A stretch of DNA of 51,000 nucleotides. Origin: a virus. Its lineage: Duplodnaviria; Caudoviricetes. The position numbers and the translations under genes are program-made. The first letter of the stretch is position 1, and each line of letters starts with the position of its first letter. Below the pieces are notes generated by a model. That model saw only the letters and a program-made list of their open reading frames with translations, ran no database searches and was not told the DNA's origin. The DNA is taken from positions 1 to 51,000 of the IMG/VR virus record IMGVR_UViG_3300020409_000025; one strand, written 5' to 3'. This document shows, piece after piece, positions 4,358 through 41,223 of this stretch.

Positions 4358-6592
4358 ATGAAAAAGAAATATAAACGAGCAGGAACTACTTCAGAACGTC
4401 AAGACTATCGCAAAGGTGGTCTTGTTGGTAATAGTAAAAGAGTAAAAGTTTTTGGTGGTGGCTATGGTGGTCCTTCTTTTAGTCAACAATATTCCGCAGC
4501 TTTAGCAGGAGGTGTGCCAAACTTATCTGGGGTCGATTTTAGTGGACTATCAATACCTACAAATGCACCTGCACCTAAACCTGAAGCACCACCTGACCCT
4601 TCAATATTTGAACCAGCACAAGCTACACAAGGACAAGAATTAGTAACTCCTCAAACACAAAGTAATAATACAACAATCGTACAAGGACAAAGTAGTATAG
4701 GTGTTGGAGATGTTGGAACAACTGCAGGAGAACCTAAAACAAATATACTTGGACAACCAATAGGAGGAACTACCATGTCAGAAGGAACTTTAAAACCAGA
4801 AGATGTAGATAGAAAAAGAAAAGATTTAGAATTACAGGCAGCAGGTCGTGGTATTCAAACTACTCCTATGCAAGTTAAAACTTTAACAGGTCAAGTAACA
4901 GGAGGAGAGTTAGAGCCGGGAACTGGAGATTTAGGTGGAGTACAAACTATAACTGGTACAACTGGACAAGTACAAGCCCCAGAACAAGTTACTACTGCTG
5001 CACCTACTCAAGCTGCTCAACCACAACAAGTAGCTCCTGCACAAATAGGTGCGGTTGAAACTGTAACTACTCAACCTACTCAAGCTGCGGTAGGAACTGT
5101 TAGTGATAAATCAGTAGCAGAAAAAGTAGATGTTAGTACTGTACCTACTATTACTGGTGTTAATGTAGATATTAAAGAAGGAGCATTAACTGATAGAGTA
5201 GTTGCTCAAATGTCTCCTGAAGCAGTTGCTCAAGCTGCTCAAGTAAATGGTTTAGATGTTAGAAGAGTCACTAGAGCAAAAGAAGAATTAAGAAATGCTG
5301 GTATAGATGAAATAACTATTGCAGAACTTGGTAATGACCCTGCAGCTTTAGAAAACAGATTAATGAATCTGACAGATAAAGATAGAGGTTTAGTTGCTGG
5401 ACTACCTGAAGAAGCTTTAGTTAGTACACAAATGAATACTCTTTTAGCAGGTATTGAACAAGGAACTGTACCAACATGGGCAAGACCTGCAATGGCACAA
5501 GTAGATGCTATTCTTGCTCAAAGAGGTTTAGAAGCTTCTACAGTTGGTAGAGATGCATTATTAAATACAATTATTCAAAGTGCTTTACCAATAGCACAAA
5601 GTAATGCTCAAGCTATACAAACATCATTAGCTCAAGAAAGAGCTACAGAAGCTCAAGTAGCAATTAAAGATGCTGAGTTTAGACAGCAAACTGCTCTTAC
5701 AAATGCAAACAATGTATTTAAATTAGACTTAGCACAGTTTAGTGCTGACCAACAAACTGCTTTAGCTAATAGTAAATTTTTACAAACTGTAAGTTTAGTT
5801 GAATCTAATAATGACCAACAAGCTGTTATTCAAAATGCTGCATTATTATCTCAAGCTAATTTAGCTCAAGCTACTGTTGACCAACAAAGACAGATAAATA
5901 ATGCTAAAGCATTTTTACAAATGGATATGGCTAATTTAAATGCTGAACAACAAACTAACATACTTAATGCTCAACAAACACAACAAGCTGCATTAAGTAA
6001 TGCTGCTGCTCAAAATGCTGCTAAACAATTTAATGCTACAAGTGAAAATCAAGTTAATCAGTTTATGGCTACTCTTGCAGCAGATACTGAAAAATTTAAT
6101 ACTACACAGATGAATGCTATTCAACAGTTTAATGCTTCACAAGCAAATGCTGCTGCAGCTAGAGATTCACAAAGAAGTTTTGATTTAGAAAAATTTAATA
6201 CTGGAATAAAAAATCAAATAGAACAATTTAATACTGCATTAGAAAATAATAGAAGAGAGTTTAATGCTAAAAACAGTTTAGCTATTGCTCAGTCTAATGC
6301 TCAATGGCGAAGACAAATAGCAACTGCAGATACTGCTGCTATTAATGCTGCTGCTGAACAAGCAGTTAAACAAAACTTTTCATTAACTTCACAAGCTCAA
6401 CAAGCTTTGTGGCAAGACTTGAGAGACCAAGCACATAATATATTTACAGGTGCTAGAAAAGATAAAGACATAGTAGCTCAAATAGTTGCAGATTTTGCAG
6501 CTAATCAATTTGCAAATGATGCAGCTATGAATGGTATGCTAAAAGTAGTTAAAAGTACAATAACAAGTCTAACAGACTATTCAATATCATAG
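4358..6592 (+). CDS. Putative internal virion (ejection) protein
   Basis: Gln/Ala/Asn-rich helical repeats (NAAKQFNA, QFNASQANA); lies after the tail genes in a podovirus layout. Confidence 0.65.
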   Translation: MKKKYKRAGTTSERQDYRKGGLVGNSKRVKVFGGGYGGPSFSQQYSAALAGGVPNLSGVDFSGLSIPTNAPAPKPEAPPDPSIFEPAQATQGQELVTPQTQSNNTTIVQGQSSIGVGDVGTTAGEPKTNILGQPIGGTTMSEGTLKPEDVDRKRKDLELQAAGRGIQTTPMQVKTLTGQVTGGELEPGTGDLGGVQTITGTTGQVQAPEQVTTAAPTQAAQPQQVAPAQIGAVETVTTQPTQAAVGTVSDKSVAEKVDVSTVPTITGVNVDIKEGALTDRVVAQMSPEAVAQAAQVNGLDVRRVTRAKEELRNAGIDEITIAELGNDPAALENRLMNLTDKDRGLVAGLPEEALVSTQMNTLLAGIEQGTVPTWARPAMAQVDAILAQRGLEASTVGRDALLNTIIQSALPIAQSNAQAIQTSLAQERATEAQVAIKDAEFRQQTALTNANNVFKLDLAQFSADQQTALANSKFLQTVSLVESNNDQQAVIQNAALLSQANLAQATVDQQRQINNAKAFLQMDMANLNAEQQTNILNAQQTQQAALSNAAAQNAAKQFNATSENQVNQFMATLAADTEKFNTTQMNAIQQFNASQANAAAARDSQRSFDLEKFNTGIKNQIEQFNTALENNRREFNAKNSLAIAQSNAQWRRQIATADTAAINAAAEQAVKQNFSLTSQAQQALWQDLRDQAHNIFTGARKDKDIVAQIVADFAANQFANDAAMNGMLKVVKSTITSLTDYSIS

Positions 6593-31535: not shown

Positions 31536-31810
31536 TGTTATTCCTCCTCTACTTCAAATTCAATGTTAGATAGATTTAATCTATCATTAACTTCATCTAT
31601 TGCTTCTTCATAAGTTTCAGCTTCTACTTCAAACTCAAACTCTCCTTTAACTATAAATCTTTTCATGCTACCTCCTTTGTATAAGTTAAACAATCGTTAT
31701 CAATTAACTCTTTTAAATAATTAATAACTTCTGCATCAGTAAGTTCATAATCGTTTTTATGATTATCAAACTCTAGTTCTATAATTACTTTAGTCATGCG
31801 ACCTCCTCGC

Positions 31811-34489: not shown

Positions 34490-34515
34490 ATCTTCTCCAT
34501 TTAAGATTTTAAGTA

Positions 34516-34866
34516 AGCAGTTTTAAATCATGCTCAGGATTTGTTATAATCTATTAACTCCCTCCAATATTAACAGCGAGTTTCTCTCTGTGTTTTTTTA
34601 TCTTTAAAGGATGATTATAACTCTCCTCCAACACCTTTAAAGATATCAGAGCAGTTTTAAATCATGCTCAGGATTTATATTCTCTCGAGATAAGAGAAAT
34701 TAAATCTGCACCTATCCAGAGTAATTAAACTCTGAATAGGATTTAGGGGGAGTGCCTTTATTTTTTTAAGTGCTTCTCGGACATATACTTGCACTATGAA
34801 CGATTGATACTTTTAGTTTCCCAGCAATTTGTATCATGCTTTTTTAATTCTTTGTTCCCCGACTGC
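34516..34866 (-). ncRNA. Structured non-coding leader with two identical 27-nt pseudoknot modules and SD-like loops
   Basis: Lies directly downstream of promoter P2. AGCAGTTTTAAATCATGCTCAGGATTT is repeated exactly at 34516-34542 and 34650-34676, with several hairpins around it. Confidence 0.6.
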
Positions 34867-34872
34867 CCCAAT

Positions 34873-34915
34873 ATAGTACCCCAAGTCGCCCAAAAACGCA
34901 ATAGGTGTAAGACTA
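34873..34915 (-). promoter_or_regulatory. Early promoter P2 with upstream TAGTCTTACAC box
   Basis: TTGCGT-17-TACTAT. Confidence 0.7.
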
Positions 34916-34924
34916 ATATGGACT

Positions 34925-35203
34925 CTATAACATGGTGACTTCATATTTATACCCCATATCCATTGAATTAGGGCTATCAAATTTATAAACAGTTTTCAAT
35001 AAAGCAAACTTATTCCTGTTGCCATATATAACATGCTTCTCATAATTAAAATTTTGAGCCGATTTAAAATTAAATCCCAAGCTATCTAAATACTCTTTAG
35101 CCTTTTCAATATTGCTAAAAGTTTTAACAGATAACTCTAAACTTTTTTTATAATCTGCTGCTAGTTTTTTATTAGCCCTTTTTTGTTCTGCCGATAGTTT
35201 CAT
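34925..35203 (-). CDS. Hypothetical early protein
   Basis: AGGAG SD; ATGA-coupled to the upstream ORF. Confidence 0.65.
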   Translation of the reverse strand: MKLSAEQKRANKKLAADYKKSLELSVKTFSNIEKAKEYLDSLGFNFKSAQNFNYEKHVIYGNRNKFALLKTVYKFDSPNSMDMGYKYEVTML

Positions 35204-35337
35204 ATACACTCCTGTTTTTTTACTAACTCTTGAACTTCATAGTAAATACCAAGATGTTGAGCAATAGCCCAAAAATCTGTAATATCACCACTAATATAAG
35301 CTTCTGCAAAAAGCTTTATTAAAGTTTCTTTATCCAT
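35200..35337 (-). CDS. First early ORF (45 aa, MDKETLIKLFAEAYISG...)
   Basis: GGAG SD, downstream of P1. Not in the ORF track. Confidence 0.55.
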   Translation of the reverse strand: MDKETLIKLFAEAYISGDITDFWAIAQHLGIYYEVQELVKKQECI

Positions 35338-35389
35338 AACACTCCATAATTTATATTGTTTTATAAAGATTTACCCGAAAGTCGCCAAC

Positions 35390-35433
35390 ACTTTAGCCCG
35401 ATTTCGCCCAAAAAGTCAAGAGGTGTAAGACTA
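35390..35433 (-). promoter_or_regulatory. Early promoter P1 with upstream TAGTCTTACAC box
   Basis: TTGACT-18-TAAAGT. Confidence 0.7.
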
Positions 35434-35527
35434 TAATAGCCCCCTCAACTTTACGCACACGCGATAAGTCGGCAAGATTTAAGTATTAGACTATAATTTT
35501 TCTAAAAAGTTCTGGGATTTATTAAGA

Positions 35528-35582
35528 TTTCACATAAAGTTCACAAAGATTTCACATAATATTTGCAAAGATTTAACAAAAG
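35528..35582 (+). repeat. Five 11-bp phased repeats (TTTCACA-type)
   Basis: Units start at 35528, 35539, 35550, 35561 and 35572; the last two are degenerate. Confidence 0.7.
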
Positions 35583-35922
35583 GTACAGTAATTTTAGTAT
35601 GTACCTTTATAATTTATGTACCTTTTAAGACTATTATGTGTACCTTCTACACTCTTTGCCCTCAACTTTACGCAGACGGGGGGCGTTCTAGTATAGTAAT
35701 AAGTAGGTTTATATATCATCTTTGTGAGTAGAAAACAGACAAACTAAACAAGACTTTTTAAAAACCCTACGGGTTGTGTGTTTTATGCTTTGCTAGGGGC
35801 AAAGATTAACAAAGCTTTAGAAAAGCTTTACCAAAAGTGAGGGGTGCTAAAGCACTCTTGAAGTTTTGCCTCACACAAGGTTCGGCAGGTTATTAACAGT
35901 GGAGTAGGGTTTTTAAAAAAAA

Positions 35923-35977
35923 TTTCACATGTTTGTCACATAAATGTCACAAAGATGTCACAATATTGACACAAAAT
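35923..35977 (+). repeat. Five 11-bp phased repeats (TGTCACA-type, Pho-box-like)
   Basis: TTTCACATGTT TGTCACATAAA TGTCACAAAGA TGTCACAATAT TGACACAAAAT. Confidence 0.75.
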
Positions 35978-36015
35978 TTATTGAACTTTTTATGAACTAA
36001 TTTTGTCTAATTAAC

Positions 36016-36222
36016 ATGAACGAAATACACATTCATTTTACAGACCAAATTCTAGGCGAGTCTTTTGCCCTAGTAGCCGAGTCAATGAAAGAAGCAAAGG
36101 ACATAATCAAAATTCATTTTGAGGAATTTGACCAAAAGCCATTTTTAGTCAAAGCACCAAAAATTTGGATTGAAAAAGAGATTAGCAATTATGCTATCTC
36201 ACTTTATAGGAGTGTCAAATAA
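36016..36222 (+). CDS. Hypothetical protein (possibly leaderless)
   Basis: No SD; TAATG-coupled to the next ORF. Confidence 0.6.
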   Translation: MNEIHIHFTDQILGESFALVAESMKEAKDIIKIHFEEFDQKPFLVKAPKIWIEKEISNYAISLYRSVK

Positions 36223-36548
36223 TGGCTTTTAAACCTACTACTGAATGGCTCGAGGCTGCCAAATTAAAGCCTGTTTCTTACAATACTGTATTATTCATCT
36301 GTGGTTTGATGAGTGAAGAACTTCCCAAGTCTTCAAAATACAAGTATTTTAATCAACTTAGAGCAACTATCCTTAGTGTTTCAAAAGGTACTACCTGCAA
36401 ACACACTGGGAAAAAAGGTACTTTCTCGCAACGTATGGCTCATGATTGGATTGAAAAAAATAAAAATCTTCCTTTCAAAAAACGCAAGTTGCCTAAGTTG
36501 ATTTCCGATAAATACACAAGGTTTCAGGAGAACCACACAGAAGAATAA
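36222..36548 (+). CDS. Hypothetical basic protein
   Basis: AGGAG SD; followed by a terminator. Confidence 0.7.
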   Translation: MAFKPTTEWLEAAKLKPVSYNTVLFICGLMSEELPKSSKYKYFNQLRATILSVSKGTTCKHTGKKGTFSQRMAHDWIEKNKNLPFKKRKLPKLISDKYTRFQENHTEE

Positions 36549-36561
36549 TCTTAAATCTTCT

Positions 36562-36591
36562 AAACCCCTCTAGTTTCTAGGGGGGTTTTTT
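36562..36591 (+). terminator. Rho-independent terminator
   Basis: CCCCTCTAG-ttt-CTAGGGGGG followed by T6. Confidence 0.8.
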
Positions 36592-37092
36592 GTCAGCCCC
36601 ACTAACTGCTAAAATGGGTTGCTACGCAACTCTTTTCACTGGGTCACACTTCGAGAAGTTGATAGACTTCCAAAGTTCTAAAACATAAAACCTCATGCTA
36701 CTTCAAATTAGCAAGTATCAAGTTCTCGAAGCAAAGAATGCTAAAGCATTGTTCCCTGTAGCAGTAAGTGCCCCTGAACCCCACCCAAAAGGCAAGTGAG
36801 GAACTGCTAACGCAGACTTTAATTATCTGATAAAGATACGCTAACGCTAACTTAATTTGGCTGTGACTTCTTGCTGCCAAGAAGCAACCACAACCTTTTT
36901 GAAAAAAGCTTGAGCAAAAACTTTTAAGAAGGGGTGAAGGGGATAGATAAACTTATTCAAGTCCTGATAGCCCTACCGAGTCTGAGGAGTTTATAGGTGT
37001 ACATCAACGCCCATCAAATCTCTTAAACTTTGTAAACTTGATAAGGACTTGTTTAGTTTGTCTGTTTAGGGATGACAAAGAGAAGATTTAAG

Positions 37093-37268
37093 TAGACATG
37101 GGTGGACTCTTTTAGCACTTCAAAGTTAATGAAATGCGAGTAGGAACTTTGAAGTGCTAAAATGGGGTGGTCACATTTTACTAGAACTTGTTAGTTTATA
37201 TAGTGTTGGGAAGGACTCCCAAGTTCTAGGGGGAGGCAGGAGACCACCCCAGTCCACCCATGTATCTA
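37093..37268. other. Y-shaped three-way-junction palindromic element
   Basis: Perfect nested stems of 13, 18, 9 and 10 bp. Confidence 0.7.
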
Positions 37269-37460
37269 TAGCATACTCATACAAAATCTAGCAGTTTCTC
37301 CGTCAACCAGATTTGCCCGTAAGTAGTTTACACTAACTTCAAAGGGGCTAGTTATTTTTAATCGGTATGGGTAGTTTTTGGGTGGGTGTTTTTGAGGTAA
37401 GTAGAACTACTTAGTTGCCCTCAGTAGTGGCTATATGCACCCGGGGGGAGCACTAAAGTT

Positions 37461-37489
37461 ATTATAGTGTTGGATTTTGATTTTGTCAA
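37461..37489 (-). promoter_or_regulatory. Perfect consensus sigma70 promoter pointing into the gene-free region
   Basis: TTGACA-17-TATAAT on the minus strand. Confidence 0.85.
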
Positions 37490-37494
37490 GAGGG

Positions 37495-37523
37495 TTGACA
37501 AATTTATTTCCGAAGTATATACT
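37495..37523 (+). promoter_or_regulatory. Sigma70 promoter of the packaging/structural arm
   Basis: TTGACA-17-TATACT; the predicted +1 coincides with the ATG at 37530. Confidence 0.85.
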
Positions 37524-37529
37524 AAGCCT

Positions 37530-37964
37530 ATGGCAATGTTACCAACTCAGTCTAATCAGACCCAAAGAAAACTTACAGAAAAACAGCAATCCTTTTTGGA
37601 ACACCTTGTTGAAACGCAAGGAGATGCTAAAAAGGCTGCTGAGTTAGCAGGTTATACAAGTCACTATCATCATGTGGTTAAGACCCTCAAGAATGAAATA
37701 CTTGAACTAACTCAGGAAATCTTGGCAAACTCTGCACCTAAAGCAGCATTTAAGCTTGTCGAGATTATGGAGTCTAATCGACCTATAGTACAGGCTAATA
37801 ATAAATTATCAGCAGCTCAAACACTGTTGGATAGGGTTGGAGTTAGTAAAATAGATAAGTTAGACGTTAATCACAACTTAAACAGTGGTATCTTTGTCAT
37901 GCCTGATAAAGCCCCACTGGATTTACCAGAGGAAGATTATGAAGATATTTCTGACAGAGATTGA
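37530..37964 (+). CDS. terS: Terminase small subunit (putative)
   Basis: LTEKQQSFL...AAELAGY helix-turn-helix and AAQTLLDRVG motifs; head of the packaging operon. Confidence 0.75.
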   Translation: MAMLPTQSNQTQRKLTEKQQSFLEHLVETQGDAKKAAELAGYTSHYHHVVKTLKNEILELTQEILANSAPKAAFKLVEIMESNRPIVQANNKLSAAQTLLDRVGVSKIDKLDVNHNLNSGIFVMPDKAPLDLPEEDYEDISDRD

Positions 37965-38145
37965 AGAAAAAGGCAAAAAGTATGCAGGACCTAATATAGT
38001 TGCCGAAAACTTAGCAGAAGCTGAGGAAGCAGCTAAAGCAAATAACTTAGTAGTAGTAGGAGAGTTTGTTGAGTTGGTTGTTGGTAGTGGGTTAATGCAT
38101 TATTTAGAAGAAGAAATACACAACAAAGATAGGGTGTTACACTAA
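37939..38145 (+). CDS. Hypothetical protein
   Basis: GAGG SD before MKIFLTE. Confidence 0.65.
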   Translation: MKIFLTEIEEKGKKYAGPNIVAENLAEAEEAAKANNLVVVGEFVELVVGSGLMHYLEEEIHNKDRVLH

Positions 38146-38333
38146 TGGCAGCAAAAAAGAAAAAGAAAAGTACAGTAAACAAAGCAGGTAACTACACAAA
38201 ACCTACTATGCGTAAAAGATTATTTAATAAAATTAAAGCTGGTAGTAAAGGTGGTAAGCCCGGTCAATGGTCTGCTCGTAAAGCTCAGATGTTAGCTAAA
38301 CAATACAAAGCTGCTGGTGGTGGTTATAAATAA
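38145..38333 (+). CDS. Small basic protein (DUF5872-like, N-terminal half)
   Basis: NYTKPTMRKRLF...GGKPGQWSARKAQMLAKQYKAAGGGY. Confidence 0.7.
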   Translation: MAAKKKKKSTVNKAGNYTKPTMRKRLFNKIKAGSKGGKPGQWSARKAQMLAKQYKAAGGGYK

Positions 38334-38423
38334 TGAGTCGCCCTCAACAAACACAAGAAGTAAACTTTGTTGAACTTAAAGAACTAATTAGGCAACAACA
38401 GCTACAAAGTAATAATTAAAACT

Positions 38424-38672
38424 ATGGCACTAAAAAAGTCACAAAGAAGTCTTAGAGCTTGGACAAAACAAAAATGGCGAACTAAGTCAGGTAAAAAGTC
38501 TTCAGAGACTGGAGAACGTTATTTACCTGAAAAAGCTATTAAAAGTCTTACTCCGCAGGAGTACGCTGCAACTTCTCGAAAAAAACGCAAAGATACCAAA
38601 AAAGGTAAACAACATTCTAAACAACCTAAACGAGTTGCTAAGAAAGTACGCAAATATAGGAAAGTATCATGA
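38424..38672 (+). CDS. Small basic protein (DUF5872-like, C-terminal half)
   Basis: QRSLRAWTKQKWRTKSG...GERYLPEKA. Confidence 0.7.
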   Translation: MALKKSQRSLRAWTKQKWRTKSGKKSSETGERYLPEKAIKSLTPQEYAATSRKKRKDTKKGKQHSKQPKRVAKKVRKYRKVS

Positions 38673-38974
38673 GTAAAAAAGACCCAAGACTTGCCAGAGC
38701 TGGAGTTTCAGGTTATAATAAACCTAAAAGAACTCCCGGGCATAAAACTAAATCACATATAGTTGTTGCTAAGGAAGGCGATAAAATAAAAACTATTCGT
38801 TTTGGACAACAAGGTAAAAAGGTTGGTACAGTAAAAGGTACAGCAGGTAAACCTAAAAAAGGAGAATCTGCAAGAATGAAAGCTAAACGTAGAAGTTTTA
38901 AAGCTCGTCATGCTAAAAATATTAAAAAAGGTAAGATGTCAGCAGCATATTGGGCTGACAAAGTAAAATGGTAA
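38669..38974 (+). CDS. Small basic conserved phage protein
   Basis: NKPKRTP...IRFGQQG...RRSFKARH...SAAYWADKVKW. Confidence 0.75.
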   Translation: MSKKDPRLARAGVSGYNKPKRTPGHKTKSHIVVAKEGDKIKTIRFGQQGKKVGTVKGTAGKPKKGESARMKAKRRSFKARHAKNIKKGKMSAAYWADKVKW

Positions 38975-39028
38975 AACTAACAGAAAAAGAAATACAACTT
39001 ATAAACAATATACTAACTGAAGATTAAA

Positions 39029-39181
39029 ATGCCACTTGCAGGAACATTTAAAGTAAAATCAGCAGCTAAACGTAATCGCATGGCTCGTAATAAAGCTCGA
39101 GGTCAAGTGGTTAGTGATGAACAAATTGCTGATAACTGGGATAAAATTTTTAATAAAACTAAAACACAGGAGCAAAAATGA
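39029..39181 (+). CDS. Small hypothetical protein (NWDKIF motif)
   Basis: 50-aa ORF, ATGA-coupled to the next gene. Confidence 0.5.
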   Translation: MPLAGTFKVKSAAKRNRMARNKARGQVVSDEQIADNWDKIFNKTKTQEQK

Positions 39182-39327
39182 TAGATGTAGATTTAGTCAT
39201 TATTGTATTAATAATGTTAGGAGTTGGTATTTTCGCTATTAAAGCTAAATACCCACAAAAATATGAAGAAGTTAAAGAAATTTTACAGGACTACTGGGAA
39301 AATCTTAAAACTTATTTCGATAAATAA
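39178..39327 (+). CDS. Small membrane protein (49 aa)
   Basis: AGGAG SD and an N-terminal transmembrane helix. Confidence 0.55.
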   Translation: MIDVDLVIIVLIMLGVGIFAIKAKYPQKYEEVKEILQDYWENLKTYFDK

Positions 39328-39332
39328 TTGTA

Positions 39333-39602
39333 ATGGATATATTACCTGACGGTTATATTCGTAAAAAATCCTCAACCATACCTTTTGGGTATGAAGAGGA
39401 TGGTATGATTGAAGGCTATTTAAAACCTATCCCTCAACAATTATCAGTACTAAAAGAAGTAGCTGAAGCTGTATTTCATGGTGAAATTAGTTTAGGTATT
39501 GGAGTTGATTGGTTAGAAGCTGAAACAGGTAAGAAACTTTCTCGTATGGGTTTAAAAAAATATGTAGATAGGAAGTATGGAAGATTGGGAAAAAAATCCT
39601 GA
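39333..39602 (+). CDS. Hypothetical DNA-binding protein (IPFGY motif) upstream of TerL
   Basis: STIPFGY...WLEAETGKKLSRMGLKK. Confidence 0.65.
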   Translation: MDILPDGYIRKKSSTIPFGYEEDGMIEGYLKPIPQQLSVLKEVAEAVFHGEISLGIGVDWLEAETGKKLSRMGLKKYVDRKYGRLGKKS

Positions 39603-41223
39603 AAAGTACTTGACAAACCCTGATGGGAGCTATATACTTAACAAAGACGGTACTCCACGTAAAAAAGGTGGTAGACCTAAGAACTCAGAATTATCTGATA
39701 TTCAATTAGCTTTAAAAGCTAAAAAGAAATTAGATAGAAAAAGTACTAAAGTAAAAAAGCTAACTAGAAGTTTAGCAAAAGTAAAAAAAGAAGTAGAAGC
39801 AGAAACTAAAGCTTTAACTTCTAATGTTCTTACTAAAGAAGAAACAAAAGTTCTTCCAAATGAATTACAAGAACATTTAGATACTACTGGGTCTCATGTG
39901 GCATTTATGCCGAATGATGGACCACAGACAGATTTTTTAGCTGCAGCCGAAAAGGATGTACTTTATGGTGGAGCAGCAGGTGGTGGTAAAAGCTTTGCAA
40001 TGCTTATCGACCCACTAAGGTATTGTGATAAGTCAGCTCATCGAGCTTTAATACTTAGAAGGTCAATGCCAGAGCTTAGAGAGCTTATAGATAAATCTAG
40101 GGAATTGTACCCAAAAGCATTTTCCGGAGCTAAGTTTAGAGAAGTAGAAAAGTTATGGAACTTTCCTTCAGGAGCTAAAATAGAATTTGGATTTTTGGAA
40201 CGAGATGCAGATGTGTACCGTTATCAAGGACAAGCTTATAGTTGGATTGGTTTTGATGAAATAACACATTTACCAACAGAGTTTGGTTGGAACTATCTAG
40301 CATCTAGGTTAAGAACAACCGACCCAGCACTGCCAACGTATTTACGTTGCACGGCTAACCCCGGAGGAGTTGGTGCACATTGGGTTAAAAAAAGGTATGT
40401 TGAACCTTCAGACCACAATAAAACATTTGTTGGTAATGATGGTTTAACTAGAAAGTTTATTCCAGCAAGATTACAGGATAATCCTTTTCTTGCAGAAGAC
40501 GGAGAGTATGAAAGAATGTTACTCTCGTTACCAGCAGTACAGCGAAAGCAACTGCTAGAGGGTAACTGGGATATTAGTGAAGGTGCAGCCTTTGCTGAGT
40601 TTGACCCTAACATTCATGTCATACCACCTTTTGATATTCCTACATGGTGGGAAAGAACAAAAGGAATTGACTACGGTTATGCTTCGGAAAGTTGTTGTCT
40701 TTGGGCAGCAGTAGACCCAGAAGATAAAACGATTATAGTTTATCGAGAACTATATCAAAAAGGTCTTACTGGTGAAGTTTTAGGTGATAGAATAACTGAT
40801 TTAGAAATGAATGAAGTTAAATCTATTACTGGAGTTTTAGATACTGCAGCGTGGTCAAGAACAGGATATACAGGTCCTACGATTGGTGAAATACTAATTA
40901 AAAAAGGACATAAACTCAGAAGAGCTGATAAAAATAGAATAGCTGGTAAAATACAAATACACGAACATTTGCGACAAAATAACGAAACAGGTAGACCAAG
41001 ATTGCAAATAACAAGTAGTTGTGTTAATTTAATAAAAGAATTACAAAGTCTACCATTAGCGAGTTCTAATCCAGAGGATGTAGATACTCATTCGGCTGAC
41101 CATGCTTATGATGCTTTGCGTTATATGATTATGGGTAGACCTAAATTAGACCATCCTTATGATAGGATGTTAAGAATAAAAACATCTGGATATGTACCTT
41201 CAGATGATAAATTTGGATATTAA
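39577..41223 (+). CDS. terL: Terminase large subunit
   Basis: Walker A GGAAGGGKS, Walker B IGFDE, TANPGG, nuclease IDYG and DHAYDALRY motifs. Confidence 0.95.
   Translation: MEDWEKNPEKYLTNPDGSYILNKDGTPRKKGGRPKNSELSDIQLALKAKKKLDRKSTKVKKLTRSLAKVKKEVEAETKALTSNVLTKEETKVLPNELQEHLDTTGSHVAFMPNDGPQTDFLAAAEKDVLYGGAAGGGKSFAMLIDPLRYCDKSAHRALILRRSMPELRELIDKSRELYPKAFSGAKFREVEKLWNFPSGAKIEFGFLERDADVYRYQGQAYSWIGFDEITHLPTEFGWNYLASRLRTTDPALPTYLRCTANPGGVGAHWVKKRYVEPSDHNKTFVGNDGLTRKFIPARLQDNPFLAEDGEYERMLLSLPAVQRKQLLEGNWDISEGAAFAEFDPNIHVIPPFDIPTWWERTKGIDYGYASESCCLWAAVDPEDKTIIVYRELYQKGLTGEVLGDRITDLEMNEVKSITGVLDTAAWSRTGYTGPTIGEILIKKGHKLRRADKNRIAGKIQIHEHLRQNNETGRPRLQITSSCVNLIKELQSLPLASSNPEDVDTHSADHAYDALRYMIMGRPKLDHPYDRMLRIKTSGYVPSDDKFGY

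Follow-up and report, generated by a model that had tools for sequence, protein, structure and literature searches.

The window analysed here, positions 1 to 51,000 of the 51-kb IMG/VR virus record IMGVR_UViG_3300020409_000025, carries a leftward host-type promoter that lies back-to-back with the promoter of the small terminase subunit gene, terS, and faces approximately 870 gene-free bases rich in inverted repeats. We tentatively read this gene-free stretch as the divergent control region of an HMO-2011-type pelagiphage, in which a leftward transcript would run through a cis-acting DNA element whose most plausible identity is a transcription-activated replication origin. The transcription, the origin function and the mechanism of activation are what we infer. 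The first-pass annotation of this DNA had proposed that the promoter fires into either a large structured noncoding RNA (ncRNA) or a packaging signal at the genome end. The promoter stood up to analysis, being conserved and facing noncoding DNA, but the single large structured ncRNA did not.

Phage identity and genome layout

The TerL encoded by the window shared 67.0% identity with that of the cultured phage HTVC115P, 65.2% with those of HTVC103P and HTVC104P, 49.6% with that of HTVC033P and 48.0% with that of Puniceispirillum phage HMO-2011. On these identities and on its gene families, the window is assigned to an uncultured HMO-2011-type pelagiphage. The HMO-2011-type phages belong to the most abundant viruses of the sea and infect SAR11, the most abundant marine bacterium.

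The genes were arranged in two diverging arms. The rightward arm encoded structural and packaging functions and ran from terS (37530) across the record end to approximately 16.2 kb, and the leftward arm, starting at approximately 35.3 kb, contained replication genes and small genes with no assigned function. The cumulative GC skew reached its minimum at 36-37 kb, where the two arms diverge, a position confounded by gene orientation. The GC content of the gene-free stretch was 37-39% compared to approximately 33% for the genome. A T7-like replisome was encoded, comprising a primase-helicase, PolA, a gp2.5-like single-stranded DNA-binding protein (SSB) and an exonuclease, together with a ribonucleotide reductase (RNR). 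No single-subunit RNA polymerase was found in the window, a weak negative as the control for this search was silent. There was also no match to the tyrosine integrase family (PF00589) in the window, in a search whose control was positive in 14/14 genomes, and no tRNA was found in it.

Relatives were collected by a TerL search of IMG/VR, in which 598 were confirmed; the best 80 of the 598 were kept, and scanning with three other queries, namely a distant terS, a word from the core and a word from the window, added further loci. The window's own lineage comprised loci L004-L006, L208 and L212-L217, at 82-98% identity. Sampling from the early-gene side with an early protein of 216 amino acids (aa) gave 4 loci. 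HMO-2011 and CRP-1 were not comparable because their gene order upstream of terS differs from that of the window.

The divergent promoter pair and the start of terS

The leftward promoter (Table 1) was the sole 12/12 match to the sigma70 consensus in the 51-kb window. When at most one mismatch was allowed, the window contained 7 matches against 1.22 expected, and 0 of 100 shuffles reached 7. The terS promoter starts 5 bp from it on the opposite strand and the pair is near-palindromic. The perfect consensus and the back-to-back arrangement described in the first-pass annotation were both confirmed. Among the distinct terS-upstream regions of relatives, the -35 element of the leftward promoter was TTGACA in 102/102 and its spacer was 17 nucleotides (nt) in 101/102; the match to the consensus was 12/12 in 67 of these relatives and 11/12 in the other 35. 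The terS promoter matched at 12/12 in 62 of the 102. The pair was also present in the cultured phages HTVC115P and HTVC033P, where the noncoding stretch measured 589 nt (terS to gp01) and 671 nt, respectively. Because the promoter pair was kept in all 102 distinct relatives, the leftward promoter is, on the strength of this conservation, genuine. The position of its -10 element places the predicted transcription start near 37454 on the minus strand.

The ATG of terS was located only 6 nt past the -10 element of its promoter, and the distance from the end of the -10 element to the start codon was 6-10 nt in 97 of the 102 distinct relatives. As the start codon lies this close, the terS mRNA appears to be leaderless or near-leaderless across the family. 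There was no Shine-Dalgarno-like motif before terS; 21 of 35 genes in the window carry one. HTVC033P, in which the terS leader would be approximately 110 nt, is an exception. At approximately 31765-31795 of the window, a plus-strand TATAAT was followed by approximately the same 10 bases as follow the leftward -10 element (2 mismatches in 16), and this site may be another promoter of the same class.

A conserved core of fixed spacing

Only 37220-37312 and the promoter region could be aligned by blastn in diverged relatives. Alignment of the relatives delimited a core of approximately 85 nt within this region (Table 1). Read on the plus strand, the family core begins with a G-rich box ending in GGCAGGAGACCA and a free G/C-rich segment of 12-18 nt, which are followed by an AT-rich tract of the TATATCTATAGCAT type, ATACAWWWY, a free spacer and YTAACCAG. 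Of 84 distinct promoter-pair loci in the correct orientation, 82 had this core. The distance between GCAGG and ACA was 44 or 45 nt in 82/84 unique cores, and that between ACA and AACCAG was 24 or 25 nt in 83/83. On the plus strand, 51 of the 84 cores had a C-rich version of the G/C-rich segment and 27 a G-rich one; the remaining 6 were mixed. The core occurred once in the window, and no other copy of its motifs was present in the genome.

RNAalifold predicted 0 pairs on 67 non-redundant cores, and a column-pair scan of 81 cores in both senses revealed no stacked covarying helix. Taken with the rigid spacing, these results indicate by sequence comparison that the core is an element of fixed geometry and not an RNA fold. 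It fits recognition of DNA by protein better than an RNA fold because its spacing is fixed despite changing sequence and it has no covarying helix. A hairpin enclosing GCAGGAGACCA was restricted to cores with a minus-sense G-rich variable segment, where that segment is complementary to the box; folding reached z<-2 in 40% of the 84 cores (mean z -1.61), and the hairpin was rejected as a universal feature since it is present in only a subset. A second sigma70 promoter within the core was also considered and rejected; the spacings did not fit, and a switch between AAAA and TTTT destroys the candidate -10 element.

The core is separated from the leftward promoter by a leader. A small conserved GC hairpin or palindrome, ACCCGGGGGG (37439-37448), is located at approximately +7 to +16 of the predicted leftward transcript, and the first approximately 20 transcribed bases were conserved in relatives, including a CCC-N(0-4)-GGG palindrome. 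The leader had a median length of 145 nt (range 60-342) in 85 unique leaders; its GC skew was weak, with a mean of +0.14 and positive values in 79% of the 85.

DnaA boxes and the candidate replication origin

In the relatives, DnaA boxes (TTATCCACA, at most one mismatch) had a density of 1.11 per kb in the 900 nt to the left of the promoter compared to 0.33 per kb elsewhere. Between 3 and 8 boxes were present in 12 of 85 loci, which were not de-duplicated. Three loci (L081, L086 and L087) carried eight boxes in the same orientation within approximately 110 bp, partly 11 bp apart. This array, at approximately 1320-1433 of L081, ends 3 nt before the G-rich box of the core, and the AT-rich tract then follows. 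Other loci with DnaA-box arrays were L111, L125, L057, L097, L100, L119-L121 and L055. No DnaA DNA-binding domain was found in the 5 array-bearing records checked or in the window; as those 5 records encode none, the binder would be the DnaA of the host. Such a domain is reported in HTVC010P-type pelagiphages, according to the accessible text of PMC8477408. CtrA-type TTAA-N7-TTAA sites were not enriched (0.16 versus 0.15 per kb).

We rank a replication origin first, tentatively, on several grounds. The core is rigid and single-copy, and the succession of a G/C clamp and an AT-rich tract within it fits an unwinding site. In several lineages it is adjoined by DnaA-box arrays, the region is situated where the gene arms diverge, and a T7-like replisome was found with no phage RNA polymerase. 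Analogous known systems, compared below, work in a related way. In the proposed model, two back-to-back host sigma70 promoters would fire outward, the right one yielding the leaderless terS mRNA and the left one a noncoding unit. This unit would consist of a short 5' GC hairpin, a variable leader of 60-340 nt and the rigid core of approximately 85 bp, which would act as a platform for protein on DNA, with its G-rich box, G/C-rich clamp, AT-rich TATA-type tract and AACCAG box. Beyond the core lie the hypervariable, lineage-specific hairpins and repeated boxes. The origin would be the core plus this adjacent variable module, and the module would recruit the initiator, namely host DnaA where box arrays are present and, in the window's lineage, another factor that binds GGGTGG-type boxes and palindromes. 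Leftward transcription through the AT-rich tract would then open or prime the origin for the T7-like primase-helicase, PolA and the gp2.5-like SSB. Transcription from a host promoter is proposed as the activator because no phage RNA polymerase was found.

Several observations weigh against an origin. The 900 nt of the window contained no DnaA box with at most one mismatch, and neither did those of 58 of the 85 loci; the arrays that do occur could instead regulate the promoter or titrate DnaA. The GC skew is inseparable from the direction of transcription. With 51 cores C-rich and 27 G-rich in the G/C-rich segment, no one R-loop chemistry fits every member. It would also be unusual for an origin to be hypervariable between phages with 99% identical TerL. 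In 44/64 distinct relatives, the interval from the core to the first minus-sense open reading frame (ORF) of 60 aa or more contained no further strong sigma70-like promoter, and in these the transcript may simply be the leader of an early mRNA. Lastly, the RNA-library data, which were Logan contigs of X1, X2, X3 and X5 over 34500-40500 and carry neither strand nor transcript ends, covered 36957-37430 and also bridged the 75-bp promoter gap (37391-37670, all four runs). This bridging suggests DNA carry-over or read-through, so that the contigs are not evidence for the proposed transcript. The section 35907-36911 was uncovered in X2, X3 and X5, which is uninformative because this part is strain-specific.

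The highest summed contig depth (27-44, three RNA libraries) was at 38118-38519, where small ORFs separate terS from terL. The contigs there have several joints and loose ends, suggestive of strain variants, and contig depth cannot rank genes.

A stronger form of the origin proposal is that the whole pelagiphage branch carries a self-contained noncoding unit that is an RNA-activated or RNA-primed origin, in which the consensus host promoter would drive RNA polymerase through a rigid 85-bp loading platform and the initiator module would be swapped freely between lineages. In this extended form we regard the proposal as doubtful. Another speculative reading is that the hypervariable hairpin-rich early RNA would be an anti-defence decoy evolving in an arms race.

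The hypervariable part left of the core

The DNA left of the core was unrelated in L007, L009 and L011 despite their 99% identical TerL. Within the window's lineage, the module at 36606-36764 was missing in L208, L212, L213 and L217, and L006 and L216 lacked approximately 90 nt around 36860-36894. The lineage-specific part is bracketed by a degenerate direct repeat of approximately 80 nt (approximately 36604-36683 and 37152-37231, spacing 548) and resembles a duplication or an insertion. Every repeat that the first-pass annotation had named was found, including this direct repeat near 36604 and 37152. The inverted repeat 36649-36664/36716-36731 paired at 15/16 positions, and CAAGTCCT/AGGACTTG and TAAGTAG/CTACTTA were also confirmed. 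Words such as CTTCAAAG were enriched in the gene-free region; GGGTGG/CCACCC had 6 copies in the region versus 5 in the other 50 kb of the window, and CTTYRAAG had 4 versus 0.33 expected.

The region had a minimum free energy (MFE) of -274.1 kcal/mol in the minus sense (z -7.73) and of -281.0 kcal/mol in the plus sense (z -7.19), and 0 of 20 shuffles folded as well in either case. Across 63 distinct regions of relatives, foldability left of the core had a mean z of -2.68 compared to -1.32 for coding controls, a noisy measure with 12 shuffles each, and z<-2 was reached by 67% of regions versus 32% of controls. Although their sequences are unrelated, the members of the family share this excess of inverted repeats to the left of the core.

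The minus-sense MFE fold of the window contains 272 pairs, which were traced in 15 relatives of its own lineage. The distinct changes comprised 46 other mismatches, 24 G-U, 22 A-C, 9 double and 6 one-sided Watson-Crick changes. An A-C change on the minus sense is a G-U on the other strand, and these counts, including G-U 24 versus A-C 22, demonstrated that the large predicted fold is not maintained and carries no strand signal. Two local hairpins were maintained, at 37110-37162 (H1) and 36860-36894. H1 was the best-kept hairpin, with two alleles whose 4 differing pairs were all compensated and strictly Watson-Crick. The outer stems of the junction that contains H1 were invariant in 6 aligned relatives; their left partners were absent in L007 and L009, though the core was kept there.

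The longest ORFs between the terminator at the left border (36566-36590) and terS were 60, 45, 37, 37, 34 and 32 aa, and none of the six had a PHROG family at E<=0.1. Six-frame tblastn of 36550-37240 matched only the near-identical loci L004-L006 (28/28 matches), and the 60-aa ORF was interrupted by a 160-nt deletion in L208, L212, L213 and L217. These results bear out the earlier view that no credible ORF lies downstream of the leftward promoter. A decayed gene was considered and is unlikely, the protein-level similarity being confined to L004-L006 and the small ORFs lacking a PHROG match. A blastn search of the gene-free region against 50,697 phage records gave no match.

The terminator at the left border converges on the leftward transcript, and its stem contains a T-G pair that is a wobble on the plus sense only. 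It belongs to two small plus-strand genes (68 and 108 aa) with no family match, which are inserted between the noncoding stretch and the leftward genes and are common only to L004, L006 and L208-type relatives. Any transcript reading through from the leftward promoter would be antisense to them. None of the proteins flanking the gene-free stretch in the window had a Pfam match.

Table 1. Features of the gene-free stretch and its borders (positions in the window; paired positions of stems under Remarks)
Feature	Position	Strand	Remarks
Intrinsic terminator of two small plus-strand genes (36016-36548)	36566..36590	+	stem CCCTCTAG/CTAGGGGGG, then TTTTTT
Lineage-specific hairpin-module stretch	36604..37231		bracketed by degenerate direct repeat
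Hairpin CTTCTTG ... CAAGAAG	36860..36894		pairs 36890/36864 and 36889/36865 kept by double changes
Multi-stem junction, 168 nt	37096..37263		four stems; 3' arms within conserved core
Junction outer stem	37096-37108/37251-37263		13/13
Junction hairpin H1	37110-37127/37145-37162		18/18
Junction stem	37163-37172/37242-37251		10/10
Junction hairpin H2	37181-37195/37215-37229		13/15 (87%)
Conserved single-copy core	37229..37312		~85 nt; from alignments of relatives
Core, G-rich box with GGCAGGAGACCA	37235-37246		
Core, G/C-rich variable segment	37247-37260		
Core, TATCTATAGCAT	37263-37274		
Core, ATACAAAAT	37279-37287		followed by 14-nt variable spacer
Core, GTCAACCAGAT	37302-37312		
Promoter-proximal leader of predicted leftward transcript	37313..37454	-	5' GC palindrome and hairpin 37399-37416
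Leftward sigma70-type promoter, TTGACA-17-TATAAT	37461..37489	-	TTGACA 37489-37484, 17-nt spacer, TATAAT 37466-37461
Rightward sigma70-type promoter of terS, TTGACA-17-TATACT	37495..37523	+	starts 5 bp from leftward promoter
Small terminase subunit gene terS	37530..37964	+	phrog_51 2.7e-06; phrog_2538 8.2e-06; Terminase_2 below cut-off

The leftward transcript as a possible regulatory leader

The closest alternative, which we consider possible but not likely, is that the leftward promoter is an early promoter whose long 5' leader corresponds to the noncoding stretch, with some lineages making a terminated RNA of approximately 90 nt instead. Attenuation or antitermination, stabilisation of the 5' end or processing would then control early expression, and a protein (an antitermination or Rho-type factor, for example) would recognise the core in the form of linear RNA. 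The lack of another strong promoter before the first minus-sense ORF in 44/64 relatives agrees with this, as does a terminator-like hairpin with a U run that was found between promoter and core in 12/64 distinct relatives, in several sequence versions. It is situated approximately 50-90 nt downstream of the leftward promoter, and its stems are fully paired only with G-U pairs of the minus sense, which argues that a minus-sense RNA is made and matters. Conservation of the first approximately 20 transcribed bases with their CCC-N-GGG hairpin, the C-rich conserved minus-sense box UGGUCUCCUGCC(Y)ACCCC, and two one-sided changes in H2 of L212 that are wobble pairs on the minus sense only point in the same direction.

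Against this, the core has no conserved structure, and its spacing is rigid to within 1 nt, a rigidity that would not be expected of single-stranded RNA motifs. In the window's lineage G-U changes did not exceed A-C changes (24 versus 22). In the window and in HTVC033P the leftward transcript would meet a convergent gene and terminator, and so enter antisense genes, not a downstream gene; because of this the promoter-core unit can stand alone. The proposal that terminator-bearing lineages carry a second early promoter was unsupported (5/12 with a terminator versus 15/52), so that terminator and second promoter were not associated.

A strong intrinsic terminator was present in more distant relatives (L103-L125, L077 and L084, the last being HTVC115P, approximately 5380-5420), where it would yield an RNA of approximately 90 nt made up of a 5' hairpin, a middle hairpin and the terminator. 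The window had no minus-strand terminator-like site in 36590-37454. Of the first early proteins of 8 relatives, 9/10 had no PHROG family and 1 belonged to a family of unknown function. A published transcriptome concerns HTVC022P and HTVC027P, and the accessible text mentions no promoter or intergenic RNA (PMC12753301).

Contig starts and a possible packaging site

It is rather improbable that the core is the recognition or cleavage region of the small terminase (pac, cos or the boundary of a terminal repeat) beside terS, with transcription across it aiding concatemer processing, a proposal that draws on the T7 analogy made in the first-pass annotation. In its favour, linkage of the core to terS and the promoter pair persists where genes are inserted on the left (36016-36548 in the window, gp84 in HTVC033P). 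It is single-copy and rigidly spaced, with a short variable G/C-rich segment between conserved boxes, and contig starts pile up 127-651 nt upstream of terS in 22 contigs, six of them within approximately 30 nt of the AT-rich tract. However, these starts are spread over tens of bases and not placed at one base, and assembly breaks where conserved DNA borders on hypervariable DNA would explain them equally well. Each of the 23 pattern-confirmed family contigs with the left box continues through the G/C-rich segment for 1,116 nt or more, and two additional look-alike contigs continue for 382 and 543 nt. In addition, the region is internal in the window record, as it is in a 52-kb record with a completeness rating of 100%. 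The contig starts near the core are probably assembly breaks at that border, and a physical end is also compatible with them.

Loci with such contig starts were L005, L009, L034, L046, L047, L051, L052, L054, L063, L074, L099, L101, L104, L108, L110, L113, L115-L117, L121, L123 and L124. The contigs starting at or near the core include two of 33-34 kb.

Recombination and large ncRNA as alternatives

We also think it improbable that the hypervariable part is a recombination hot spot or a former attP region, with temperate relatives integrating and cassettes being exchanged, and that the hairpins are by-products (mobile hairpin modules or terminator remnants) with only the promoters functional. 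This would account for the sharp break in similarity at the core's left edge in phages whose TerL is 99% identical, for modules that come and go as units and for the degenerate direct repeat that brackets the stretch. A tyrosine integrase is encoded upstream of the replication module in subgroups I and III according to the accessible text of PMC9038755, and this position is next to the region. Additionally, the end of a contig of a bacterial metagenome-assembled genome (MAG), L226, contained a core-like element with the family spacing of 44 nt and, approximately 230 nt away, a truncated 5' half resembling a tRNA. This lead is weak, as the pattern had 6 matches in the genome collection versus approximately 6 by chance (our estimate) and the MAG had no TerL match. 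The window itself has no integrase, no tRNA and no tRNA-like Rfam match in the region, and with neither a PF00589 match nor a tRNA it does not resemble the attP of a tRNA-integrating phage. Recombination leaves the conserved core unexplained, and the excess foldability is family-wide, which argues for selection on the hairpins.

In L226 (approximately 186-650) the core-like element contained GGCAGGAGACCA, a G-rich segment, TATATATATA and ACATTTT at the 44-nt spacing. Three direct repeats of the ATGTGAGC type lay between it and the tRNA-like half, and type IV pilus genes, coaE and argJ were nearby. The element could be a prophage end or a chimeric contig end.

A large structured ncRNA of approximately 850 nt from the leftward promoter, whether GOLLD/ROOL-like or of a new class, is very improbable despite the strong conserved promoter, the very low folding energy of the minus sense, the elevated GC content and the coverage of 36957-37430 by contigs of four RNA libraries, and the covariation counts largely refute it: the plus sense folds equally well, predicted pairs and sequence were not kept even at 85-92% identity, disrupting changes on the minus sense outnumbered pair-keeping ones (68, 46+22, versus 39, 24+9+6), complete hairpins were gained and lost among close relatives, and the sequence of other relatives here was unrelated. 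The covariation comparison put forward with this claim, run in the window's lineage, gave no bias toward G-U tolerance. Nor was there an Rfam match, a conserved fold or a helix in the core; 4227 Rfam families including GOLLD and ROOL gave 0 matches at the gathering score in the whole window, and the 13 sub-threshold matches in the region (best E 0.34, a plant miRNA model) were neither tRNA-like nor near the gathering score.

Significance of the region

No description of this region was found in the literature searched, including the paper on the phage group (PMC9038755), the supplements of which may hold data on termini. The present analysis defines a family-wide consensus pair of host promoters, one of which would make a leaderless terS mRNA; a single-copy core that can be mutated in the cultured phages HTVC115P, HTVC103P, HTVC104P and HTVC033P; and a hypervariable module with arrays of boxes for host DnaA in some lineages. 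The region bears on where replication starts, on how genes are timed without an RNA polymerase of the phage's own and on DNA packaging in HMO-2011-type phages. The ecological weight of this group, and the availability of cultured members for direct tests, make it of interest. If the origin reading is true, phage replication would be linked to the cell-cycle initiator of slow-growing oligotrophic hosts, the core would serve as an origin marker in metagenomic genomes, and close relatives would differ in how they tap host replication control (DnaA arrays versus private palindromes and boxes).

Comparison with known systems

GOLLD, ROOL and other large phage ncRNAs in Rfam resemble the gene-free region in size range and phage context. 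They differ in that the region has neither a covariance-model match nor a conserved secondary structure. The noncoding left end and concatemer junction of T7 is similar in having several hundred gene-free bases, host promoters and short repeated words (CTTCAAAG and GGGTGG being enriched in the window), and it likewise adjoins the packaging genes on the circular map. The promoters of the window are, however, divergent rather than co-directional.

The lambda PR'-6S RNA/tR' system and the nut/put leaders share a strong constitutive promoter, with a terminator within approximately 90 nt in 12/64 relatives, and conserved sequence directly past the -10 element. They are set apart by Q-, N- or put-like components, none of which was recognised here, and the window has no such terminator.

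Bacterial oriC with its basal unwinding module and the origins of iteron plasmids and P1 are most similar to the L081-type relatives, in which a phased array of same-orientation DnaA boxes, a G/C-rich cluster and an AT-rich tract follow one another. In contrast, the window and most relatives have no boxes, DnaA-trio repeats were not recognised and no phage protein with a DnaA domain was found.

At the T7 primary origin and at ori(uvsY) and ori(34) of T4, transcription from a promoter enters an AT-rich unwinding tract, and the RNA made there activates or primes replication; the activation of lambda ori and ColE1 RNA II work in a related way. ColE1 RNA II resembles the unit described here in its sigma70 promoter a few hundred nt upstream, its structured transcript and the G/C runs at the presumed hybrid site, and the phage polymerase is of the PolA family. 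It differs in that the leftward RNA would carry the G-rich side in just 51/84 cores, and we know of no RNase H-type processing site for this transcript. Compared to the T7 and T4 origins, the window's promoter has the host sigma70 consensus and is not dependent on a phage RNA polymerase or on MotA, and its candidate origin element is a rigid 85-bp core with G/C-rich boxes. The similarity extends to the replisome, T7-type parts of which are encoded in the window.

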